NCBI GenBank assembly: GCA_024233875.1
Contig: JACKPB010000009.1
Coordinates: 1 to 21,190, forward strand
Reading direction: 5' to 3'
From: Leptospiraceae bacterium
Lineage (GTDB): Bacteria; Spirochaetota; Leptospiria; Leptospirales; Leptospiraceae
DNA length: 21,190 nt
The notes beneath the pieces were generated by a model. That model did not search any database and had not been told where the DNA came from. It saw only the letters and a program-made list of their open reading frames with translations. The translations under genes were made by a program, and so were the position numbers. Shown here piece after piece: positions 2,357 to 15,613 of the stretch (within the stretch, counting starts at the first letter, position 1; every line of letters begins with the position of its first letter).

Positions 2357-2920
2357 CCGGAAATTGTTTTTCTATTTCAAAGATTGTCCAACACAAAATA
2401 TAGTTCATCCTTCATAAATCCTTGCGATTTCCTTCAAAAGGTATCTAGCCATTTCATTGTTGATTGTATGAAGTATACGCAAATCTTTTGAAAATGCCTA
2501 AAGTTTAGCCCTCAGAATAGAGATCCCTACAGGTACCCGAATCGGTGAGTATTTCAAAAAGTCTTTTCATTGGAAATGAATACCTCATTCTTGGATGACT
2601 AAGTACATATACATACGCAATTGAATCAGGTGAATAGCTTGTCCCCTCATTACCTATAGGGGTTTTCTAAAAAATGAGATGCTTAGGTAGGAGCAAATGC
2701 TAGTTCATCAAATGAAAATATCCCCCTCAGACAAAGATCCGAAGAAGAAACAAATCTATGCTTAGAATTTTAGTCACAACACCTAAAGAGTTTAAATATG
2801 TCAAATTATATAGATAAACCAAACCTTATTTTAGAATGATTCAATCTGTAAAAGTTAATTATTTAACTCACCCTAAGCAATTATTTTTCTTTTAAACATT
2901 TTACTTTTTTTAATAGATCT

Positions 2921-2985
2921 ATAAAAATAGGGGTTTGGGGTGCATCCCACCTCTAAAAAGCCCTGCTAAGGGGTTTTTAGAGGTT
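2921..2985 (+). other. Structured intergenic element, copy 1. An A-rich box ATAAAAATAGGGGTTTGGGG is followed by nested hairpins CCTCTAAAAAG-CCCT-GCTA-AGGG-G-TTTTTAGAGG.
   Basis: Inverted repeats read directly from the sequence. The same organisation recurs at 6173-6258. Confidence 0.35.
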
Positions 2986-3065
2986 CCCTATCAAAAAACT
3001 AAAATGATTAACTTTTTGATTTGACCTTTTCATTTTTGAATGAAAATTGGAAAACGAATTCATGG

Positions 3066-3099
3066 AAGCTTCTTACATCAATTTAATAAGAAGCTTTTG
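3066..3099 (+). terminator. Perfect 10-bp inverted repeat AAGCTTCTTA…TAAGAAGCTT with an 11-nt loop, followed by TTTTG. Either an intrinsic-terminator-like hairpin or an operator. It lies about 115 bp upstream of the lipoprotein gene.
   Basis: Read directly from the sequence. Confidence 0.35.
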
Positions 3100-3214
3100 T
3101 ATCAAATGGTGTTCAGAAACCTTACGGTTCCTTAATTAAGTGTTTAGCCACTGAATACTAGATTCATCTGAAAAGGTGCAAACCTTTTCAAAATGAGTAG
3201 GGAAAACAGATTGA

Positions 3215-6172: not shown

Positions 6173-6258
6173 ATAAAAATATGGGTTTGGGCGATAGCCC
6201 AAGCTGCCGGCAGGCTCCCTGCAACCTCACATTTCGCTTCTTTGCGTAATGTGAGTTA
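6173..6258 (+). other. Structured intergenic element, copy 2. An A-rich box CAATAAAAATATGGGTTTGGGC and a hairpin TTGGGC-GATA-GCCCAA, followed by hairpin CTCACATT-(CGC TTCTTT GCG)-T-AATGTGAG.
   Basis: Read directly from the sequence. It parallels the element at 2921-2985 and lies immediately upstream of the repeat array. Confidence 0.35.
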
Positions 6259-7109
6259 TTTAAATAGATCGGTGCTGGTGTCTGACAGTGGGGCAGGACA
6301 AGATTCATTCCGGAAAACATTTTTTCGAAAGGATAATTTTTCCGCATTGTCGTAAACCCAAAATCACCACCAAGGGAAACATCCTTAGTAATTTATTGAG
6401 TTCACATCCATTTTCGAGTGAAAGGATGGAAATTTGCCCTTCGGCTACGCTCAGGGATCGAAAAAGTTTCTCAGCAATACAAATAAAACCTTCTTCAAAA
6501 CCGGGATCTCGATACAATTTTTACAATAACTGTAATACGAATACAAAAGGAGATCCCGACAGATTTTTTCAAAAGGGAAAAAATCACTCGATCACCGAAT
6601 CCTTCGAAAAAAAGAAGAAGCTTCCATCCAAAGTATCCCCCAACCAAAAACCAGCCTTTCAATGATGCCTTTCTCAGAGAATCCAAGGTTGTGCAGCCCA
6701 AACATCTCGGAACAAAAATTTAGAGATGTCGGATCTGTTTCCGACTCTCGTTTTTTGTATCGCCTGCCCGGCTCGAGGGCACAGAAGAATTCTCATTATC
6801 AAGAATATCTTAATACATTAGAGAAAGCTTACGAGCACTTTTGGATAAGCAGCAACCTTGAGATGAAAGAGAAGGTTTAGCATCATTGAAAGTTGAACCT
6901 AAGAAGACCCCGCGTCAGCGGACATCCTTCGAAAAAAAGAAGAAGCTTCCAACCTAAGTATCCCCCAATAAAAAACCAGCCTTTCCATCCTGATTCTACA
7001 GAAATACAGGTTCCACAGCTGAAACTTCTCGGAGCAAAAATTTAGAGATGTCGGGTCTTTTTCCGACTCTCGTTTTTTGCCCGAAAGTTTCAAGCGAAAG
7101 GAACCTTGT

Positions 7110-7292
7110 ATGACGATAGAGCATCAGGAGGGAAAGTTGAAGACAAGAAGACCCCGCGTCAGCGGACATCCTTCGAAAAAAAGAAGAAGCTTCCATCCAA
7201 AGTATCCCCCAACCAAAAACCAGCCTTTCAATGATGCCTTTCTCAGAGAATCCAAGGTTGTGCAGCCCAAACATCTCGGAACAAAAATTTAG
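7110..7292 (+). CDS. Candidate minigene in a 243-bp unit. It would encode a 60-aa highly basic peptide (MTIEHQEGKLKTRRPRVSGHPSKKRRSFHPKYPP…LGTKI).
   Basis: AAGGA sits 7 nt upstream of the ATG (gcgAAAGGAaccttgtATG). The TAG stop at 7290-7292 is immediately followed by the hairpin and T-run. Paralogs recur elsewhere in the array. Translation is unproven. Confidence 0.3.
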   Translation: MTIEHQEGKLKTRRPRVSGHPSKKRRSFHPKYPPTKNQPFNDAFLRESKVVQPKHLGTKI

Positions 7293-9184
7293 AGATGTCG
7301 GATCTGTTTCCGACTCTCGTTTTTTGTATCGCCTGCCCGGCTCGAGGGCACAGAAGAATTCTCATTATCAAGAATATCTTAATACATTAGAGAAAGCTTA
7401 CGAGCACTTTTGGATAAGCAGCAACCTTGAGATGAAAGAGAAGGTTTAGCATCATTGAAAGTTGAAGACAAGAAGACCCCGCGTCAGCGGACATCCTTCG
7501 AAAAAAAGAAGAAGCTTCCATCCAAAGTATCCCCCAACCAAAAACCAGCCTTTCAATGATGCCTTTCTCAGAGAATCCAAGGTTGTGCAGCCCAAACATC
7601 TCGGAACAAAAATTTAGAGATGTCGGATCTGTTTCCGACTCTCGTTTTTTGTATCGCCTGCCCGGCTCGAGGGCACAGAAGAATTCTCATTATCAAGAAT
7701 ATCTTAATACATTAGAGAAAGCTTACGAGCACTTTTGGATAAGCAGCAACCTTGAGATGAAAGAGAAGGTTTAGCATCATTGAAAGTTGAAGACAAGAAG
7801 ACCCCGCGTCAGCGGACATCCTTCGAAAAAAAGAAGAAGCTTCCAACCTAAGTATCCCCCAACCAAAAACCAGCCTTTCAATGATGCCTTTCTCAGAGAA
7901 TCCAAGGTTGTGCAGCCCAAACATCTCAGAACAAAAATTTAGAGATAGCCTGCCCGGCTCGAGGGCAATGAAGAATTTTCCTTTATAATAAGATTTAAAC
8001 TCAATTGCCGAAGAAGCCACCCGTAATACAAATAAAACCGTCTCCAAAACCGGGATCTCGATACAATTTTTACAATAACTGTAATACAAACCTAAAACGG
8101 GATGAAGGTAGATCTTGTCAAAAAGGGAAAAAATCACTCGATCACCGAATCCTTCGAATTGAAGAAGAGGCTTCCAACTAAAGAATCCCCCAATAAAAAA
8201 CCAGCCTTTCAATGATGCCTTTCTCAGAGAATCCAAGGTTGTGCAGCCCAAACATCTCAGAACAAAAATTTAGAGATGTCGGATCTGTTTCCGACTCTCG
8301 TTTTTTGTGGAGAGATTTTGGATAAGCAGCAACCTTGAGATGAAAGAGAAGGTTTAGCATCATTGAAAGTTGAACCTAAGAAGACTCCGCGTCAGCGGAC
8401 ATACTTCGATCAGAAGAAGAGGCTCCATGCAATGGAAAGTTGAAGACAAGAAGACCCCGCGTCAGCGGACATCCTTCGAAAAGAAGAAGAGGCTTCCAAC
8501 CTAAGTATCCCCCAATAAAAAACCAGCCTTTCAATGATGCCTTTCTCAGAGAATCCAAGGTTGTGCAGCCCAAACATCTCGGAACAAAAATTTAGAGATG
8601 TCGGATCTGTTTCCGACTCTCGTTTTTTGTATCGCCTGCCCGGCTCGAGGGCACAGAAGAATTCTCATTATCAAGAATATCTTAATACATTAGAGAAAGC
8701 TTACGAGCACTTTTGGATAAGCAGCAACCTTGAGATGAAAGAGAAGGTTTAGCATCATTGAAAGTTGAAGACAAGAAGACCCCGCGTCAGCGGACATCCT
8801 TCGAAAAAAAGAAGAAGCTTCCAACCTAAGTATCCCCCAATAAAAAACCAGCCTTTCCATCCTGATTCTTAGGAAATACAGGTTCCGAAGCCGAAATCTT
8901 ATGGATCAAAAATTTAGAGATAGCCTGCCCGGCTAGAGGGCACAGGAATATTTTTTACGACAGAAATTTTTAAAACAACTATCAAATTACATACCGACTA
9001 CTTTGAATCTGTTCTCCGACTCTCGTTTTTTGCCCGAAAGTTTCGAGCGAAAGGAACCTTGAATAACGAGAGAGCATCAGGATGGAAAGTTGAACCGAAG
9101 AAGACCCCGCGTCAGCGGTAAAAACAAAAGTCCTTCGATCAGAATAAAATGCTCCCATGCAATGGTGAGCCGAACCCCAACCCT

Positions 9185-9224
9185 AAAAAAAAAAGCCCGC
9201 TATTTTACGATAGCGAGCTTTTTG
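9185..9224. terminator. Bidirectional terminator-like hairpin AAAAAAAAAA-GCCCGCTAT-TTTAC-GATAGCGAGC-TTTTTG, just outside the IS66 end.
   Basis: A 6-7 bp stem flanked by an A-run on one side and a T-run on the other, read directly from the sequence. Confidence 0.4.
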
Positions 9225-9286
9225 TAGTATTGCAAAATATCCCGGCAGTACTTCGACTATCGCTCAGTATAAACGTAAGCGCAAAT

Positions 9287-10915
9287 TTAACCCCATCCAA
9301 GGATGGATTTGAAAAGAGTTTCGGCTTCCTCTGAGGTATTGCAGGTCGGCAATTTTGAGAAGAACTCGATAGCGGCATCCTGAGGATTCAATCCGTTGGC
9401 TTTAAATGTTTGTAATATGGATAGATACATCGCCGAAGCTTCTGCTCCTTCCGGAACGTCCGCAAATAACCAATTCTTCCTACCCAGAACAAATGGACGG
9501 ATGGCATTTTCTACAAGGTTGTTATCAATATAGATTTCACCATTGTCCAAATAGAGTATAATCTTTTTCCATTCTTTCAGAGCATAGTTCACTGCGACTC
9601 TCAGTCCATTGGATTTCTTCGGATTCTGCGATTCCATAAGAATTTGATTGTAAAGATGATCCATTAGAGGCTTGGATTCTCTCTGTCTGATTTTTACAAT
9701 CTCCGCAAAATTTCCATTCCTGTAGTAATCATGATTTCTAATTTTCTTCTCGACGTCATACAATTTCTTAATGGTAAATAAGATCTTTTCTGCTGATTTT
9801 TCATTGGATGCCTTGAACGAATTTTCAAATTTCCGTCTGACATGAGCAAGACATCCGGCAAGCAGGATTTCAGGTGTCTCTTTCAAATGAGCATTGTATG
9901 TCGCCAAACCATCAGCCTGAATGAAGCCTTCATATCCATTCAAGAATTCCTTTAAAAACTCAGCCGATCTCGATGTTCGATATTGATAATAAATGATCGG
10001 TTTGTCCGGTCTTCCTCCACGGAATACCCACATATAGGATACAGAAGTATTCTTCCTATCTTTTTCTTTATGAACCTGATAGTTCGTTTCATCCACTCCG
10101 ATCATCCTTCCGCTCTTCACAAGTTTAGGGAAAAAGGATAATAATTCCAGATACAGCAAATACACTCCGATTACCCAATTACTCATCGTGCTTCTCGGTA
10201 TCTCAATTTTACTCCGGAGCAACATTTCCGACAATCGGTAAAAAGGTATACCATCCAACCACTTGGCAATCAAGAGGAAGACTAGTGTTTCTACCGTCAG
10301 ATTGCTACCGGGGTAGATCTGGGGAGTTTTGTATGGAGCAGTTACAATGATTTTTCCGGCTTCATTTCTTTCATCCCCTTTGCAATGATTGCATGTGTAT
10401 TTAGCCCTTCTGTGCTGTCTTACATAGACCTGAGGAGGAACGATTACAATCTGCTCGGATACTTCCGGTTCTATTTCTGTCAATCTGTGACCGCAATTAC
10501 ATGTCTTTTCTTCTTCAGGAATATCATGTTTTTCTTCCACTCTCTTTAAGTGATCGGGAAGTGCTTTTCGTCCTACTTTCTTTCTTGTATGGGATTTGAC
10601 TTCTACTTCATCCGAATGGGATTCGAAAAGGGTTTTTTCATCATGCAATCCCAATTCTGCTTCGTTAAAGAAGAGATCCTGATAGTAAATAGATGGATCT
10701 ATTTTCTCGGACTTTCTTCCGAATTGCATCCTTCGGAGCTCTTCGAACATATCCTTCAATTTTTCAATAGCTCTATCCCTTTCGGTTATACCATGTTGAA
10801 GGGCATTGATTTTATTTTGTTTTTGAATGATTTCTTTTTTGAATTGGGTTTGGATTTGTAATACAATTTTCTTTAGTTCTTCGGGATCATCGGGGAGATT
10901 TTCAGGAAGTTGCAC
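9287..10915 (-). CDS. tnpC: IS66-family transposase TnpC.
   Basis: 542-aa ORF. N-terminal coiled-coil or leucine-zipper-like region, zinc-finger Cys clusters (CNCGH…, CNHCKGD), then a DDE catalytic region typical of IS66 TnpC. Confidence 0.8.
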   Translation of the reverse strand: MQLPENLPDDPEELKKIVLQIQTQFKKEIIQKQNKINALQHGITERDRAIEKLKDMFEELRRMQFGRKSEKIDPSIYYQDLFFNEAELGLHDEKTLFESHSDEVEVKSHTRKKVGRKALPDHLKRVEEKHDIPEEEKTCNCGHRLTEIEPEVSEQIVIVPPQVYVRQHRRAKYTCNHCKGDERNEAGKIIVTAPYKTPQIYPGSNLTVETLVFLLIAKWLDGIPFYRLSEMLLRSKIEIPRSTMSNWVIGVYLLYLELLSFFPKLVKSGRMIGVDETNYQVHKEKDRKNTSVSYMWVFRGGRPDKPIIYYQYRTSRSAEFLKEFLNGYEGFIQADGLATYNAHLKETPEILLAGCLAHVRRKFENSFKASNEKSAEKILFTIKKLYDVEKKIRNHDYYRNGNFAEIVKIRQRESKPLMDHLYNQILMESQNPKKSNGLRVAVNYALKEWKKIILYLDNGEIYIDNNLVENAIRPFVLGRKNWLFADVPEGAEASAMYLSILQTFKANGLNPQDAAIEFFSKLPTCNTSEEAETLFKSILGWG

Positions 10916-10960
10916 GGTGACAATATGGAATCAATTGTAGTACCGTACAACTACTTTTTT

Positions 10961-11308
10961 TTATTCATTAGGAAAAATTAATTCTCTATGCTCCTTTCTG
11001 AAATCAATTCCTCTCAATAACCAGTTCAATTCTCTTCTGGATATAGTTACTCTATCCATTGATCCGGAGGGCCATGCAAATTGTCCTTTTTCCAATTTCT
11101 TCTGCCAGATGCAGAATCCATTTCCATCCCAGTAGAATATTTTGATCAGTTTTCGGGAATGTCCGCTAAAGAGAAACAAGGAACGACTATATGGATCCAG
11201 ATTCATCTCCTCCTTTATGATTCCATACAATCCATTCCATGACTTTCTCATGTCGGTATAGCCCGTTCTGATGTATACTTTCAATTTCAATGGATCGCGG
11301 AGAATCAT
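10961..11308 (-). CDS. tnpB: IS66 Orf2 (TnpB) accessory protein.
   Basis: 115 aa. The conserved YIRTGYTDMRKSWNGL…FLFSG…K(L)IKI(FY)WDGNGF signature of IS66 TnpB. Overlaps tnpA by 4 nt (ATGA). Confidence 0.8.
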   Translation of the reverse strand: MILRDPLKLKVYIRTGYTDMRKSWNGLYGIIKEEMNLDPYSRSLFLFSGHSRKLIKIFYWDGNGFCIWQKKLEKGQFAWPSGSMDRVTISRRELNWLLRGIDFRKEHRELIFPNE

Positions 11309-11580
11309 TGCGGTTTCCTGATTCGAATAGTAATCCCGGAGTTATTCTCTATTTGAATCGAAACTTCTAAAGGAGATTGAGAAAATTCAGGTTCAGGCTC
11401 TTCTATCTTAACCGGAAGTATTGTTTTTATACGATGATTTACTGTTTCCTTCGCATATTTATATCTCCAATTCGAAAAGGAATCTACAGTTATATCATTC
11501 TCGCGACAATAGGCTCGGATACTTTTACCGCTCTTCTGCCAGTTCTTAACATGCTTTTTCATTATTGTATGTTTATCCAT
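11305..11580 (-). CDS. tnpA: IS66 Orf1 (TnpA), helix-turn-helix protein.
   Basis: 91 aa, first gene of the IS66 operon. Its reading frame overlaps tnpB by 4 nt. Confidence 0.7.
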   Translation of the reverse strand: MDKHTIMKKHVKNWQKSGKSIRAYCRENDITVDSFSNWRYKYAKETVNHRIKTILPVKIEEPEPEFSQSPLEVSIQIENNSGITIRIRKPQ

Positions 11581-11652
11581 AATGGATAGTATAACAGAAA
11601 ATCAGATTTTGAAAACCTGTGGGAGTTTTAGCGCTTACGAAAGGAACCTTGT

Positions 11653-11835
11653 ATGACGATAGAGCATCAGGAGGGAAAGTTGAAGACAAGAAGACCCCGC
11701 GTCAGCGGACATCCTTCGAAAAAAAGAAGAAGCTTCCAACCTAAGTATCCCCCAACCAAAAACCAGCCTTTCAATGATGCCTTTCTCAGAGAATCCAAGG
11801 TTGTGCAGCCCAAACATCTCGGAACAAAAATTTAG
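11653..11835 (+). CDS. Candidate minigene encoding a 60-aa basic peptide, paralog of 7110-7292.
   Basis: AAGGA Shine-Dalgarno sequence, ATG, TAG at 11833-11835, then the hairpin GTCGGATCTGTTTCCGAC and a T-run. Confidence 0.3.
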   Translation: MTIEHQEGKLKTRRPRVSGHPSKKRRSFQPKYPPTKNQPFNDAFLRESKVVQPKHLGTKI

Positions 11836-12221
11836 AGATGTCGGATCTGTTTCCGACTCTCGTTTTTTGTATCGCCTGCCCGGCTCGAGGGCACAGAAGA
11901 ATTCTCATTATCAAGAATATCTTAATACATTAGAGAAAGCTTACGAGCACTTTTGGATAAGCAGCAACCTTGAGATGAAAGAGAAGGTTTAGCATCATTG
12001 AAAGTTGAAGACAAGAAGACCCCGCGTCAGCGGACATCCTTCGAAAAAAAGAAGAAGCTTCCAACCTAAGTATCCCCCAATAAAAAACCAGCCTTTCCAT
12101 CCTGATTCTACAGAAATACAGGTTCCACAGCTGAAACTTCTCGGAGCAAAAATTTAGAGATGTCGGGTCTTTTTCCGACTCTCGTTTTTTGCCCGAAAGT
12201 TTCAAGCGAAAGGAACCTTGT

Positions 12222-12401
12222 ATGACGATAGAACATCAGGATGGAAAGTTGAACCTAAGAAGACTCCGCGTCAGCGGACATCCTTCGAAAAAAAGAAGAA
12301 GCTTCCAACCTAAGTATCCCCCAATAAAAAACCAGCCTTTCCATCCTGACTCAAAGGAAATACAGGTTCCACAGCTGAAACTTCTCGGAGCAAAAATTTA
12401 G
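12222..12401 (+). CDS. Candidate minigene encoding a 59-aa basic peptide, a divergent allele ending …HPDSKEIQVPQLKLLGAKI. A further diverged copy lies at 12466-12627.
   Basis: Same Shine-Dalgarno/ATG/stop/hairpin architecture. The C-terminal half differs from the other copies by substitutions only, so frame and stop position are preserved. Confidence 0.3.
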   Translation: MTIEHQDGKLNLRRLRVSGHPSKKRRSFQPKYPPIKNQPFHPDSKEIQVPQLKLLGAKI

Positions 12402-12657
12402 AGATGTCGGGTCTTTTTCCGACTCTCGTTTTTTGCCCGAAAGTTTCGAGCGAAAGGAACCTTGTATGACGATAGAACATCAGGAGGGAAAGTTGAACCT
12501 AAGAAGACTCCGCGTCAGCGGACATACTTCGATCAGAAGAAGAGGCTCCATGCAATGGAAAGTTGAAGACAAGAAGACCCCGCGTCAGCTGACATCCTTC
12601 GATCAGAAAAAGATACAATGGAATTGATGAATACAACCACAAAAAAAAATTCCCCAC

Positions 12658-12695
12658 TCATGAGTAGTTTAAAGTTGACTTTAAACTACTCATGA
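12658..12695. promoter_or_regulatory. Perfect 18-bp palindrome TCATGAGTAGTTTAAAGT-TG-ACTTTAAACTACTCATGA, 17 bp upstream of the ATPase start. A candidate operator or a strong hairpin.
   Basis: Read directly from the sequence. A partial third copy TTTAAAGTCAA follows at 12700-12710. Confidence 0.5.
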
Positions 12696-12711
12696 ATAAT
12701 TTAAAGTCAAT

Positions 12712-13851
12712 ATGAAAAAACTCAGATATCTTTTCTCTCCAATCCAGGACACTCTCACGAAGAAAATGGTCTTTGTGGGTGGTCCGAGACAGGTAGGAAA
12801 AACAACTCTTGCTCTGCAGTTTCTAAAACCACCAAGTATTCAAAATCCCGCATATCTGAATTGGGATTTCAATTCAGATAAATTGCAAATTTTAAGAGAC
12901 GAGTTTGCCCTTCAAAACAATAAAATTCTAGTTTTCGATGAGTTGCATAAGTACTCAAAGTGGAGAAATTTGATTAAGGGTTTGTATGACAAATATAACG
13001 AGAAAAATCAATTCATAATTACGGGATCAGCAAGACTGGATTATTTTCGAAAAGGAGGTGATTCCCTTTTGGGAAGATACCGATATTTCAGACTCCATCC
13101 TTTTTCCCTGATGGAAATGAATAAAAATCCCAGCAAAACTGATTTAGAAACACTTTTAAAATTTGGAGGTTTTCCCGAGCCCCTACTCTCACAAAATGAG
13201 AAAGAGCACCGGATCTGGAAGAATGACAGAATGATCAAGGTTGCCTCTGAAGACATCCGGGACCTTGAAAATATTAAGGACGTTTCCTCTATGCTACTTC
13301 TTGCAGAACTTCTCCCTTCCAGAGTAGGGTCTCCCCTTTCTTTAAAAAGTTTGTCCGAGGATTTAAACGTATCACAACCTACCGTTGATCGATGGATAGA
13401 AATTTTGTCTACACTATACTATTGCTATGCAATCCTTCCTTTTGGTTCTCCCAAAATAAGAGCGGTGAAAAAATTAAAAAAAGTTTATCTTTGGGACTGG
13501 TCACAGGTAGAAGAATTAGGATTTCGATTTGAAAATCTGGTAGCGGGTCATTTACTTAAGTACTGTAATTTCATATCAGATACCGAAGGCTATCCAATGG
13601 AAGTTCGGTATTTACGCGATACAGATGGAAGAGAAATAGACTTTGTGGTTCTGAAGAATAAAAAACCTATTTTTGCAGTAGAATGCAAAACAGGTGAAAA
13701 ATCTCTAAGTCCGAGTATTTCTTATTTCAAAGAAAGAACAGAAATTCCCGAGTTTTTCCAGGTTCATTTGGGCACAAAAGATTTTGGTTCCAATCAAACA
13801 GGAAGGGTATTGCCATTCCAAAAATTTTGCCGGGAAAAGGTTTTAGTTTGA
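12712..13851 (+). CDS. AAA-family ATPase of the AAA_14/DUF4143-type architecture (orphan 'ATP-binding protein' family).
   Basis: 379 aa. Walker A GGPRQVGKTT, a Walker B-like VFDELHK, then a C-terminal region of the kind seen in DUF4143 proteins. The gene is embedded between blocks of the repeat array. Confidence 0.65.
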   Translation: MKKLRYLFSPIQDTLTKKMVFVGGPRQVGKTTLALQFLKPPSIQNPAYLNWDFNSDKLQILRDEFALQNNKILVFDELHKYSKWRNLIKGLYDKYNEKNQFIITGSARLDYFRKGGDSLLGRYRYFRLHPFSLMEMNKNPSKTDLETLLKFGGFPEPLLSQNEKEHRIWKNDRMIKVASEDIRDLENIKDVSSMLLLAELLPSRVGSPLSLKSLSEDLNVSQPTVDRWIEILSTLYYCYAILPFGSPKIRAVKKLKKVYLWDWSQVEELGFRFENLVAGHLLKYCNFISDTEGYPMEVRYLRDTDGREIDFVVLKNKKPIFAVECKTGEKSLSPSISYFKERTEIPEFFQVHLGTKDFGSNQTGRVLPFQKFCREKVLV

Positions 13852-13859
13852 TATACAAA

Positions 13860-14420
13860 TATAACCTTGTTCTAAACCGGGATCTCGATACAATTTTTAA
13901 CCACCCCCTGCCCCCTCCAAAGGAGAGGAGTCCCTAGATGAAATATTTTATCTATTAAGTATTTTTGCTATCCACAGCAAATTAAATCTTTCAATCAGAA
14001 AAAAGGCTTCCAACCAAAATATCCTCCAATAAATAACCAGCCTTTCCATCCTGACTCAAAGAAAATACAGGTTTCATATCCGAAATCTTATGGATCAAAA
14101 ATTTAGAGATAGCCCGCCCGGCTGGAGGGCACAGGAATATACTATGTGACAGAAATTTTAAAACAACCTACAAGTTATATATCGACTACTTAAGATCTGT
14201 TCTCTGACTCTCGTTTTTTGAATCGCCTGTCCGGCTCGAGGACACGGAAGAATATCCGCCCAATAGAGATTCTTATTTTCGAGAGCAAATTGTATCGACA
14301 ACTTTCGAGCGAAAGGAACCTTGTATTACGATAGAGCCACAGGATGGAAAGTTGTCCTTCGACTACGCTCAGGCGAAATTGACCCATGTCAGAGGTTATA
14401 AAATTCTTCTCCATAACCTG
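13860..14420. repeat. Degenerate distal block of the repeat array (terminal, diverged units).
   Basis: Diverged copies of modules seen at 8840-9040 (…AACCAGCCTTTCCATCCTGACTCAAAG…GATCAAAAATTTAGAGATAGCC…) and of the motif AAACCGGGATCTCGATACAATTTTTA (also at 6501 and 8039). The stretch ends with GGATGGAAAGTTGTCCTTCGACTACGCTCAGG, which mirrors 6425-6460. Confidence 0.75.
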
Positions 14421-14548
14421 GATCTCGATAATATTTTTACAAAAATAAAAAATCTTATTGAATTTATCCTAAACCTGATAACTAATTCAAAAATTGAAAT
14501 GAGATTTTATGTTCCTATGAACTTGTTCATCAAAAGACCGGAAGATAA

Positions 14549-14974
14549 GTGCGAACGGAATTGAGGATAACTGACTTATTCATGAGATTTAATCTTACTA
14601 ATCATCTATTTTTATTTCCAATCCTGACTTTATTTTTTAATTGCTCGGGATTGAACTTGAGGACTTATCCCATTCCTATAGCTCCCGATACCAATCCGGT
14701 TCCCAATTATTCAGGACTAAGCGTAGTACGATATGGAGGTTTTCTCTGGCATCAAATGGAAACTCCGGTAGGACTCACTCCGGGTGTCAAATTGAGCAAA
14801 CGGGGAGAATCTTGCTCCCATTCAATTTTATTCTTATTCGCCTGGGGTGACTCTTCTATTGAAATGGCAAAAATCAATGGAAGTGTAGTTCAGATCGGTT
14901 TGATGGAATACATTAATTCTGCTATCCTGGGTGGGATTTATCACAAACACTGCTTGGTTCTACTAGGTCAATGA
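14549..14974 (+). CDS. TRL-like small lipoprotein, paralog 1. The true start is probably the ATG at 14582 (MRFNLTNHLFLFPILTLFFNCSG).
   Basis: Signal peptide plus lipobox. The conserved C-terminal pattern G(E/K)(S/A)C…S.L…FxxG(D/S)xS……A………I.(I/L)……S.LG..Y…HC.V..G is shared with the next two ORFs. Confidence 0.6.
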   Translation: MRTELRITDLFMRFNLTNHLFLFPILTLFFNCSGLNLRTYPIPIAPDTNPVPNYSGLSVVRYGGFLWHQMETPVGLTPGVKLSKRGESCSHSILFLFAWGDSSIEMAKINGSVVQIGLMEYINSAILGGIYHKHCLVLLGQ

Positions 14975-14975
14975 T

Positions 14976-15290
14976 ATGCAAATTAGGATCACTTTTTTTC
15001 TAATCTTTTTTCTAAATAGCTGCGCTACCGGACCCGTTGGAGGATTTCTATTTACAAAAAATAAGTTTTCGGGAGAAATCAACCCAGATCGAACGATTCC
15101 GGATACTGTTCAGGCTAAAGGTTGCCAGCATTCTTTCCTTATGTTATTCAGTTTTGGATCAGCTTCTGCCGGTGAAACCGCTTATCGAAATTCTATCATT
15201 CGAATCGCATATGTTGACCATTCCACTTTGAGTATATTAGGTTTGGTATATACACAGTATTGTACACATGTCCACGGAGCATCCTTTTGA
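14976..15290 (+). CDS. TRL-like small lipoprotein, paralog 2.
   Basis: 104 aa. Signal peptide with a Cys (FFLIFFLNSCA) and the same C-terminal pattern (…GLVYTQYCTHVHG). Confidence 0.6.
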   Translation: MQIRITFFLIFFLNSCATGPVGGFLFTKNKFSGEINPDRTIPDTVQAKGCQHSFLMLFSFGSASAGETAYRNSIIRIAYVDHSTLSILGLVYTQYCTHVHGASF

Positions 15291-15613
15291 CTTTTTTGTT
15301 TCAGATCATTTTGTTAGTCTTAATGGGATGTACTACAACAATATCTCCCGGATTTATTTACAATCAAACAGAAGAACATGTGTATGACAGAAGCAGGGGA
15401 AGTCAACTCGGATCAGGTAGGATTTTAAAGATTGGAGAAGATTGCGTTTACGGAAGTATTCTCGGAATAAGTGGTTTGGTATCCGATAGTGCCTCAGTTG
15501 AAATTGCCAGTTACAATGCAGGTATCACAAAAATCGGATCGATAGATTATAAATCCATTAGTATCCTCGGTCATATATTTTTTCGACATTGTGTCGTAGT
15601 TTTTGGAGAATGA
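15260..15613 (+). CDS. TRL-like small lipoprotein, paralog 3. Its start overlaps the previous ORF by 31 nt.
   Basis: 117 aa. LMGCT lipobox and the same C-terminal pattern (…ILGHIFFRHCVVVFGE). Confidence 0.55.
   Translation: MYTCPRSILLTFLFQIILLVLMGCTTTISPGFIYNQTEEHVYDRSRGSQLGSGRILKIGEDCVYGSILGISGLVSDSASVEIASYNAGITKIGSIDYKSISILGHIFFRHCVVVFGE

Follow-up and report, generated by a model that had tools for sequence, protein, structure and literature searches.

A tandem array of terminator-tipped palindromic repeats in a Leptospiraceae bacterium: a probable non-coding, lineage-specific repeat family

Palindromic intergenic repeats are a kind of element already known from other bacteria, and they provide the closest comparisons for the locus described here, a mosaic array of direct repeats in a 21,190-nt stretch (hereafter the window) of the forward strand of contig JACKPB010000009.1 of a Leptospiraceae bacterium. 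MITEs (miniature inverted-repeat transposable elements), whose feature list takes in ERIC, Chunjie, Correia, and RUP (PMC3184786), measure 100-250 bp, have terminal inverted repeats and no transposase, fold into very stable stem-loops, lie between genes and downstream of them, and can create spurious open reading frames (ORFs). Neisserial intergenic mosaic elements (NIMEs), not observed outside Neisseria as of PMC1797815, form long intergenic arrays of mixed unit families bounded by short inverted repeats; they contain insertion sequence (IS) elements, vary in copy number between strains, and have been proposed as recombination substrates. Pneumococcal BOX elements are modular (boxA-boxB(n)-boxC) and variable in module number, with outer modules that form a stem-loop; large ones create ORFs that become annotated and may be transcribed, and the SPRITE repeat resembles a Rho-independent terminator and lies close to gene 3' ends (PMC3049150). 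Roles as terminators or insulators, or in recombination, similar to those considered below, have been proposed for ERIC, SPRITE, BOX, and NIME (PMC3184786, PMC3049150, PMC1797815).

The Leptospiraceae array shares the MITE features just listed, with stem-loops of -70 to -86 kcal/mol and with modules of 146-227 nt in which terminal inverted repeats enclose a short core that holds no ORF matching Pfam. It departs from MITEs in having no target-site duplication, the flanks of every copy reading ..AACCAGC (left) and TTGAAGAC.. (right). Nor was a cognate IS found: the only one present, an IS66 element, has ends (GTAAGCGC) that do not match. Its palindrome runs the full length of the module and carries a terminator at its tip, and a constant spacer of 88-98 nt separates the copies in head-to-tail arrays. 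The likeness to NIMEs extends to all of the array features named above, in architecture only. A regular-expression search of both strands of 6401-14450 returned 0 matches to the dRS3 motif ATTCCCN8GGGAAT, what the inverted repeats enclose is a full-length, terminator-bearing palindrome, and the intervening module is constant rather than diverse. The features given above for BOX and SPRITE likewise have their parallels in the array. To both, no sequence relationship is expected; here the units are longer, and one element unites a terminator-like tip with a modular tandem array. Our best reading is that the family is a new palindromic repeat of the MITE/ERIC/NIME-like kind. More specifically, we consider it probable, though some way from certain, that the array represents a lineage-specific family of repeats that are non-coding, modular, palindromic, and tipped by terminators, and that it grew by recombination within a shared module, A. 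Directly visible in the sequences are the module anatomy, the palindromes, two hairpins with compensatory changes, the lack of a coding signal, and copies in several contexts.

A preliminary description had proposed a single mosaic tandem array built of units of ~243 and ~325 bp. The mosaic is real, and it spans 6476-14445, where a repeat search yielded 11 direct-repeat families. Tandem Repeats Finder bore out both unit sizes, with periods of 325 bp (7132-8857, 5.3 copies, score 2031) and 244 bp (12000-12547, score 991). The array is not one stretch, however, since an IS66-family element and the gene of a 379-aa ATPase divide it into three blocks, 6476-9183, 11639-12620, and 13853-14445. We cut the repeats into pieces and mapped these modules back onto the window by BLAST, which placed 16 A-type and 12 B-type modules in the array, all on the + strand. 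A unit is an A followed by a BC module, of 227 nt in type 1 (BC1) and 146 nt in type 2 (BC2). The pairing of B1 with C1 and of B2 with C2 is constant, whereas the C-A-B combinations are often hybrid, as both the module map and a table of the palindrome arms show. Module A is C/A-rich and mostly unstructured, with a mini-hairpin, CCGC-GTCA-GCGG, inside it; its ends, GAAAG/CTTTC, are the inner 5 nt of a 13-nt inverted repeat. Since A is the only long stretch common to both unit types, the recombination is best placed there, and unequal homologous exchange within A would explain both the hybrid units and the byte-identical copies. The earlier proposal of recent amplification, made from five byte-identical copies of a 72-codon ORF, holds, as does the identity of the five copies itself.

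The core common to all contexts consists of A(37-98), B, and the terminator, and four modules in all can precede it: C1, C2, C3, and a 57-62-nt repeat, D. C3 also occurs in L010, L011, L012, L017, and L019, which belong to a set of comparison sequences (L004-L019) made up of short metagenome contigs from the same organism or close relatives. The D repeat, ~57-62 nt long, contains CCTTCGACTACGCTCAGG(G)ATCG or the related CGTCGAGATCCTCGGATGACA. It is tandemly duplicated in L011 (744-855) and L017 (1-110), and single remnants of it edge the array blocks of the window (6423-6455, 9251-9267, 14352-14372). In L007 the D motif is fused to the hairpin motif of A, where CTGACGC ... GCGTCAG makes a 7-bp stem.

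The palindromes are the central feature of the family. Each BC module is a long imperfect palindrome of ~60-80 pairs, or ~30-70 bp when the hairpin is taken as extending from perfect 13-nt arms, and as RNA or as single-stranded DNA it would fold into a single hairpin of ~60-80 pairs. BC is bounded by a 13-nt inverted repeat, of which 5 nt are shared by both types and 8 nt are type-specific; 5/8 of the type-specific positions differ between types, and 5/5 of these covary. The repeat search also found these arms as a perfect 13-nt inverted repeat surrounding A in C1-A-B1 units, GCATCATTGAAAG / CTTTCAATGATGC; C2-A-B2 units have the counterpart TCAGGATGGAAAG / CTTTCCATCCTGA. Across all arms of the window and of 15 other contigs, the arm at the start of B is always matched by the arm at the end of the next C, whereas the pair around A is often mismatched, in C1-A-B2 and C2-A-B1 hybrids. 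This difference is explained if BC folds as one hairpin. A helix enclosing A, formed by the end of C with the start of B, was considered as an RNA feature and rejected as the selected unit because the hybrids break it, in 5/8 full units of the window and in several elsewhere; the B-to-C pairing is never broken.

Computed folds agree with this picture. The reference BC1 module folds at -85.2 kcal/mol, compared with -53.3 +/- 4.8 for shuffled sequences (z = -6.7), and has an extra branch relative to BC2; the reference BC2 module folds at -79 kcal/mol against -34.4 +/- 4.0 (z = -11.2) into a near-continuous hairpin of 61 pairs, one of them G.U. We folded 18 distinct BC variants from the window and the other contigs. 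In the 15 regular ones (156-237 nt), z runs from -3.9 to -13.9, and 29-34 of the first 40 nt pair with the last 60; three longer composite or degenerate copies (L007, window 14042, L016:377) are less tidy.

The tip of the palindrome is a canonical intrinsic terminator, in which an A-tract precedes and a U-tract follows a stem of 10 bp, and these two tracts form the next layer of the palindrome beneath the stem. The terminator hairpin noted in the preliminary description was recovered: nine units carry GTCGG(A/G)-N6-TCCGAC followed by TCTCGTTTTTTG, and a scan found 33 terminator-like sites where shuffled sequences gave 8.4 +/- 3.0. Over 15 distinct sequences the stem is paired in 98.7% of cells, with 0/500 shuffles as good; three of its pairs have changed on both sides, and several further substitutions produce G.U pairs. 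Just after the terminator, or in its place in the "long" forms, lies a 5-bp hairpin, UGCCC[GGCUNGA]GGGCA, in which a C.G pair has become U.A in 4/9 variants and two U.G pairs occur. Block 3 carries variants of it (UGUCC/GGACA).

Where the units lie suggests what they may do. Each unit would stop transcription of the + strand, and the elements could thereby act as 3'-end, terminator, or insulator elements, and as substrates for recombination. Termination and 3'-end formation seem the most likely action, with the arrays serving also as recombination substrates, because units lie downstream of co-oriented genes (the NHL and ATPase genes of the window, a gene in L007, and an ORF in L011) and because, in the strain without the IS, block 1 separates the NHL gene from a convergent rRNA-like region. 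For spread between loci, two routes may be envisaged, a MITE-like transposase acting in trans or recombination.

Several observations weigh against this view of the family. First, neither the window nor the contigs yielded a target-site duplication, an empty site, or a transposase that matches, so that the family is at most putatively mobile. Second, L011a is the sole source of the three terminator-stem pairs that changed on both sides. Third, either strand of BC folds as well as the other, so that G.U pairs over the whole palindrome do not reveal the strand, and such pairs are few (0-2 of ~60 in BC2). A DNA-level palindrome or templated repair would explain this pattern no less well than selection on RNA, and the compensatory changes are therefore no proof of function. 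Indeed, arm-to-arm templated repair of quasi-palindromes could mimic a compensatory pattern without selection. The strand and function of the BC hairpins, like the activity and strand of the terminator, are thus inferred. Fourth, all of the comparative material consists of contigs of the kind named above, and exact-pattern scans of 185,579 species genomes (one scan) and of a metagenome collection (two scans) returned chance matches only, in a type of search that would miss diverged copies. Finally, the C-rich single-stranded motifs and the promoter-like site in C1 would fit a small RNA (sRNA) gene equally well.

Table 1. Features of the array and its surroundings in the window
Feature	Position	Strand	Details
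Module A, reference copy	7132..7229	+	98 nt, GAAAGTTGAAGAC...CCAGCCTTTC
Module A, other full copies	starts 6888, 7457, 7782, 8435, 8760, 11675, 12000, 12244	+	
Modules B1 / B2		+	97 / 94 nt, 85% alike; each ends GTCGG(A/G)-N6-TCCGAC TCTCGTTTTTTG
Module C1		+	130 nt; without exception after B1
Module C2		+	52 nt; contains AAGGAACCTTGTATG; without exception after B2
Module C3	6476..6598	+	123 nt; alternative upstream module, joins A at position 37; own 8-bp hairpin GGGATCTC..GAGATCCC
Module C3, further copies	8025-8148; partial 13853-13899 and 14398-14445	+	13853-13899 lies right after the ATPase stop codon
BC1 palindrome, reference	7550..7786	+	237 nt with arms; outer arms CTTTCAATGATGC / GCATCATTGAAAG
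BC1 parts	terminator 7622-7651; small hairpin 7659-7675; promoter-like site 7752-7780	+	B1; predicted terminator; small hairpin UGCCC[GGCUCGA]GGGCA; C1 with promoter-like TTGAGA-17-CATCAT
BC2 palindrome, reference	12093..12248	+	156 nt with arms; outer arms CTTTCCATCCTGA / TCAGGATGGAAAG
BC2 parts	terminator 12162-12191; ATG at 12222	+	B2; predicted terminator; C2 with Shine-Dalgarno-ATG segment
Block 1, first part	6599..9183 (whole run)	+	A'(37-98), BC1, A, BC2, A, BC1, A, BC1, A, truncated B1 with hairpin (7880-7998)
Block 1, second part		+	C3 (8025), A', BC1 with internal deletion (8206-8369), A-short (8365-8434), A, BC1
Block 1, end		+	A, long BC2' (8853-9089, start codon ATA), degenerate A (9085-9183)
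Block 2	11639..12620	+	partial C2, A, BC1, A, BC2, A, BC2, A-short (12488-12557), A-partial (12558-12620)
Block 3, degenerate	13853..14445	+	C3 part, A'(13986-14046), long BC2'' (14042-14351, start codon ATT), A*-like piece with CTTCGACTACGCTCAGG, C3-like end
60-codon "minigene" ORF	7110..7292	+	C2 ATG, then A, then B1; judged no gene
Sister ORFs	11653-11835; 12222-12401; 12466-12627	+	60 aa; 59 aa; aberrant C-terminus; judged no genes
72-codon ORF	7231..7449; identical copies at 6662, 7556, 8534, 11774	+	runs through terminator hairpin and C1; judged no gene
IS66-family element	9275..11638	-	tnpC 9287-10915, tnpB 10961-11308, orf1 11305-11580 (Pfam); ends GTAAGCGC/GCGCTTAC
Terminator, strong	9190..9223	-	14-bp stem; not of the repeat family; between array and rRNA-like sequence in the IS-free strain (L008)
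AAA_14/DUF4143 ATPase gene	12712..13851	+	379 aa (Pfam); between blocks 2 and 3

It is instructive to set the array beside the sRNA possibility more fully. LhrC1-4 of Listeria are tandem sibling sRNA genes, arranged as head-to-tail units of ~100-300 bp with Rho-independent terminators and C-rich single-stranded motifs, and the present units could by analogy be paralogous sRNA genes. Each C1-preceded unit would then have its own promoter and give a ~190-nt RNA (A plus B) whose 5' half is single-stranded and rich in C (GCUUCCA, UCCCCCAA, CCUUUC) and which also contains a segment that varies, a stem-loop on the 3' side, and a Rho-independent terminator; it would act in trans, for example on purine-rich ribosome-binding sites. 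The promoter-like TTGAGA-17-CATCAT is indeed present in all six C1 copies, and the diverged C1 of L007 and L011 retains its TTG, the spacing of 17 nt, and CATCAT. Moreover, conservation of the terminator includes compensatory and G.U changes consistent with the + strand, and the invariant core holds conserved unpaired C-rich blocks next to a variable block. Yet the promoter scores only 9/12, in a scan whose 18 sites are no better than the 15.9 +/- 4.3 expected by chance; CATCAT belongs to an arm of the inverted repeat and would be conserved on that account anyway; and units preceded by C2 or C3 have no comparable promoter, so that, in contrast to LhrC, a promoter-like site occurs in some units only. 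The terminator here sits inside a 150-230-nt palindrome of both strands, whereas an sRNA needs no Watson-Crick palindrome of equal stability on either strand. Rfam 15 gave 0 matches in the window at gathering score and only chance-level ones in a sensitive scan, and a tRNA/tmRNA scan of the window found none. We therefore regard an sRNA array as unlikely, though it deserves more weight than any other alternative. A variant of it, in which self-pairing or RNase III-processed RNAs of ~160-190 nt come from many copies and the palindromic BC makes the 3' part of one transcript complementary to the 5' part of the next, seems somewhat less likely again; its conserved core would be A(37-98), B, and the terminator, carrying unpaired C-rich motifs and a hypervariable segment behind alternative 5' modules, in an uncultured Leptospiraceae lineage; were it true, it would have no described counterpart.

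The non-coding reading also depends on the ORFs. In the preliminary description, each ~243-bp unit was a complete small-protein gene, with a Shine-Dalgarno (SD) sequence and ATG, some 60 codons, and a stop abutting the terminator. AAGGA does lie 7 nt before the ATG, but the ORF is intact at only three places, with a fourth that is aberrant (Table 1). The SD-ATG is present in just 3 of ~12 units, and, because it belongs to C2, the full 59-60-codon ORF needs a C2 ahead of A-B. Where C1 or C3 comes before the unit, an in-frame TGA lies directly upstream (CAT CAT TGA AAG), and in C1-preceded units the ATG homologous to that of C2 meets TAG after four codons. Start codons are dead in further C2 copies (ATA near 9063, ATT near 14327, and likewise ATA or ATT in L016), in-frame stops interrupt the copies at 8146-8307 and 8760-8917 and in L012, and in the diverged copy of L007 the frame is closed and the SD-ATG is missing. 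The SD-ATG segment, GGAACCUUGUAUGACGAUAGAAC, is the arm opposite CUACAGAAAUACAGGUUCC, which sits within the 3' half of the 60-codon ORF, the two mirroring each other across the ~60-pair hairpin. Since they occupy opposite hairpin arms, the ORFs can be understood as by-products of the palindrome together with its A-rich, T-poor composition, and this is the most likely origin of the "minigenes" as by-products of a non-coding palindromic repeat.

The preliminary description had seen a hint of constraint on the coding sequence in two alleles that differ by substitution alone. B1 and B2 differ by substitutions and by an indel as well. That the indel is 3 nt long favors a coding role, as do the three intact ORFs with their AAGGA and their stop just ahead of the terminator, a frame that is open in most A-B copies, and annotation by NCBI as hypothetical proteins. 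The rates say otherwise. Between B1- and B2-type ORFs the proportions of synonymous (pS) and nonsynonymous (pN) differences are 0.17 and 0.16, with 7/10/8 differences over the codon positions, and in a set of nine B1-type variants taken from several contigs the ratio pN/pS is 0.90 for the ORF frame compared with 1.17 and 0.46 for the others. With pN/pS at 0.9-1.0 and no frame standing out, there is no sign of purifying selection in the 60-codon frame. Neither is the length of the ORF beyond chance, because 9% of shuffled units contain an ATG-ORF of at least 59 codons when one strand is read, and 20% do when either strand counts. In a library of 5.8 billion proteins, a word-indexed search matched the peptide only to H7A24_13385, 13400, and 13405 from one contig of a Leptospiraceae bacterium metagenome-assembled genome (MAG), and a full HMMER pass over 1.84 billion representatives added to the same MAG's protein only a weak, low-complexity match, P0004 (E = 4e-4). 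Proteins MCP5512868-75 belong to this MAG. Pfam matched neither ORF type, and variants of the 72-codon ORF differ mostly at the amino-acid level. A small-protein gene family was rejected for these reasons: the start and ribosome-binding site are absent from most units, purifying selection is absent, and neither protein library yields a homologue outside the same MAG beyond that weak match.

A toxin-antitoxin-like set, the other coding option raised earlier, fares no better. The 60-aa peptide, MTIEHQEGKLK..., has an isoelectric point of 10.8-11.1, a grand average of hydropathy (GRAVY) of -1.0 to -1.35, and a best 19-aa Kyte-Doolittle window of -0.3; it is hydrophilic and has no hydrophobic stretch, which makes a type I toxin unlikely, and no minus-strand promoter-like site lies within the units. 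Taken together, multiplied genes for a very basic peptide of 59-60 aa, or a toxin-antitoxin-like set, are highly improbable. A type III toxin-antitoxin system was considered for the two 70-nt A-short units and the strong hairpin before the ATPase gene and rejected, the unit size being wrong and the ATPase being no ToxN-like nuclease.

The comparison with MITEs can also be turned into an explanation in its own right, in which the BC modules themselves are MITEs, mobilized in trans, that piled up or were amplified at this locus. Their terminal inverted repeats, size of 146-227 bp, long stem-loop, and lack of a transposase are classic features (PMC3184786), copies occur in several contexts, and IS66 copies or remnants lie near the family in both the window and L007. 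Nevertheless, no copy has a target-site duplication (flanks ..CCAGC / TTGAA..), no empty site was found, and the ends of IS66 (GTAAGCGC) are unlike the BC arms. In addition, the palindrome spans the whole module, not the termini alone, and every BC is embedded with A modules on both sides, a hint that copying took A plus BC together. We give this explanation a low probability, about that of the self-pairing sRNA array.

Other classes of repeat were examined and set aside, in line with the preliminary statement that the array is no IS, CRISPR array, or simple satellite. REP/BIME elements, GC-rich palindromes of 20-40 nt that alternate in orientation and have a RAYT transposase, are excluded in that the + strand carries every module and each of the 9 copies of the GC-rich hairpin GCCYGYCYGGCW, without alternation, and the window has no Y1/RAYT-like gene. 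A CRISPR array, in which unique spacers alternate with identical repeats of 23-47 nt, would not have units of 244 and 325 nt in which every part is repeated. For an integron or attC array, 0 RYYYAAC...GTTRRRY core pairs were found at 40-130 nt on either strand, and the window contains no tyrosine recombinase. A diversity-generating retroelement is likewise rejected, since the differences between B1 and B2 and among variants are not adenine-specific and there is no reverse transcriptase.

Copies beyond the window place the family in a wider setting. Exact-protein look-ups retrieved the same organism in other metagenome assemblies at 99.4-100% identity, and it occurs in SRR12358675/6 and in samples ERZ273093xx and ERZ28655xxx. 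Using the NHL-repeat neighbor as a synteny anchor gave thousands of unspecific matches from its repeats and led to L007, L008, and L009, and a search with the 72-aa ORF gave a cluster of ten variants that led to L010-L019, which contribute units at 90-98% identity and new contexts. Module variants thus occur in at least four genomic contexts (window, L007, L011, L018), and L017 adds further variants and contexts. L007 carries an NHL paralogue or orthologue that is 78% identical and a diverged single module copy, of 71-90% identity, downstream of a DUF3782/PDDEXK_10 gene; in this copy the U-tract and the small hairpin are retained, as is the terminator, here GUCGG/CUGAC and including a G.U pair. 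Elsewhere the searches stayed empty: two exact-pattern scans of viral contigs gave chance matches only, blastn against plasmids and phages gave no match, and L001-L003 match nothing beyond the scan pattern, L003 having 68% GC. Variants found later (CCATCCTTTC) show that the first scan pattern misses diverged copies.

The same contigs bear on whether the array might be an assembly artefact, that is, whether the assembler made the tandem copies or a join through IS66. Contigs L004, L005, L006, L008, and L009 break or collapse within the array, the first four being short-read assemblies of the same organism. IS66, which separates blocks 1 and 2, shows no 8-bp target duplication, although one is expected (it is flanked by GTATAAAC on the left and by GAAAGGAA on the right), and L008, from another sample, has no IS66 at this site and runs into rRNA-like sequence instead. 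From the NHL gene, L008 passes through a collapsed block 1 and a minus-strand terminator and then enters a minus-strand 23S rRNA gene at its 3' end. The missing duplication and the IS-free L008 leave IS66 here as a rearrangement, a strain difference, or an assembly join. On the other hand, all module and junction types recur in independent assemblies from >10 samples, the right IS66-array junction is reproduced in L004, and real repeats break contigs in the same way. An artefact is accordingly very hard to credit. As separate observations, the rRNA-like sequence of L008 (4460-5424) comprises the 23S 3' end, at 191.8 Rfam bits over 649 nt with ~270 nt of insertions, and a 5S-like stretch that reaches 17.6 bits, below threshold; both regions hold small palindromic inserts, GGATCGC...GCGATCC. 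The region may be an rRNA pseudogene, may contain intervening sequences, or may reflect a chimeric contig. L007 also contains, at 2062-2196, a remnant of the left end of IS66, 79% identical to window 9264-9403 in opposite orientation and ~220 nt from the diverged repeat copy, which makes IS66 and the repeat family neighbors in two separate loci. The short-read contigs of the ATPase gene (L005, L006) end at repeats on both sides.

A terminator-tipped, probably non-coding repeat family of this kind may be relevant in several respects. First, it would be a new and structurally unusual family, combining a full-length palindrome, a terminator tip, a constant spacer module, and tandem arrays, in a spirochaete lineage without a described one. 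Second, such arrays are hot spots of rearrangement, here with an IS66-associated junction polymorphism beside rRNA-like sequence, and they break short-read assemblies. Third, if the units are transcribed, the array could either supply structured RNAs or place a series of terminators between convergent genes. Finally, they call for caution in annotation, as a palindromic repeat can mimic a ribosome-binding site, ATG, 60 codons, stop, and terminator all together; GenBank already carries hypothetical proteins from these ORFs (H7A24_13370, 13385, 13400, 13405).

The genes around the array, assigned with Pfam, are of ordinary kinds, and no integrase, reverse transcriptase, or RAYT is among them. 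The ATPase matches PDC-S01, a candidate defence family of PADLOC (E = 3.6e-47), and a perfect 18-bp inverted repeat at 12658-12695 (TCATGAGTAGTTTAAAGT / ACTTTAAACTACTCATGA) precedes its start by 17 nt. Downstream of the array the window encodes three TRL-like proteins, an Lcl_C protein, CysZ, and a PLP enzyme. The three TRL-like genes (PF13146) are small and consecutive (14549-15613) and follow the array directly; a 414-aa protein without a family comes after them, with the Lcl_C-domain protein on the other strand. Upstream lie genes for an SDR, an amine oxidase, and the NHL-repeat protein. Between the amine oxidase gene and a 166-aa ORF of no assigned family, ~850 bp (2357-3214) contain no ORF of at least 50 aa. 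Just upstream of the array (6186-6255) is a GC-rich palindrome, GCTGCCGGCAGC, within GATAGCCCAAGCTGCCGGCAGGCTCCC, together with a 12-nt inverted repeat, CTCACATTTCGC / GCGTAATGTGAG; the GCTGCCGGCAGC palindrome resembles, reversed, the GCCTGCCCGGCT hairpin of module C1.

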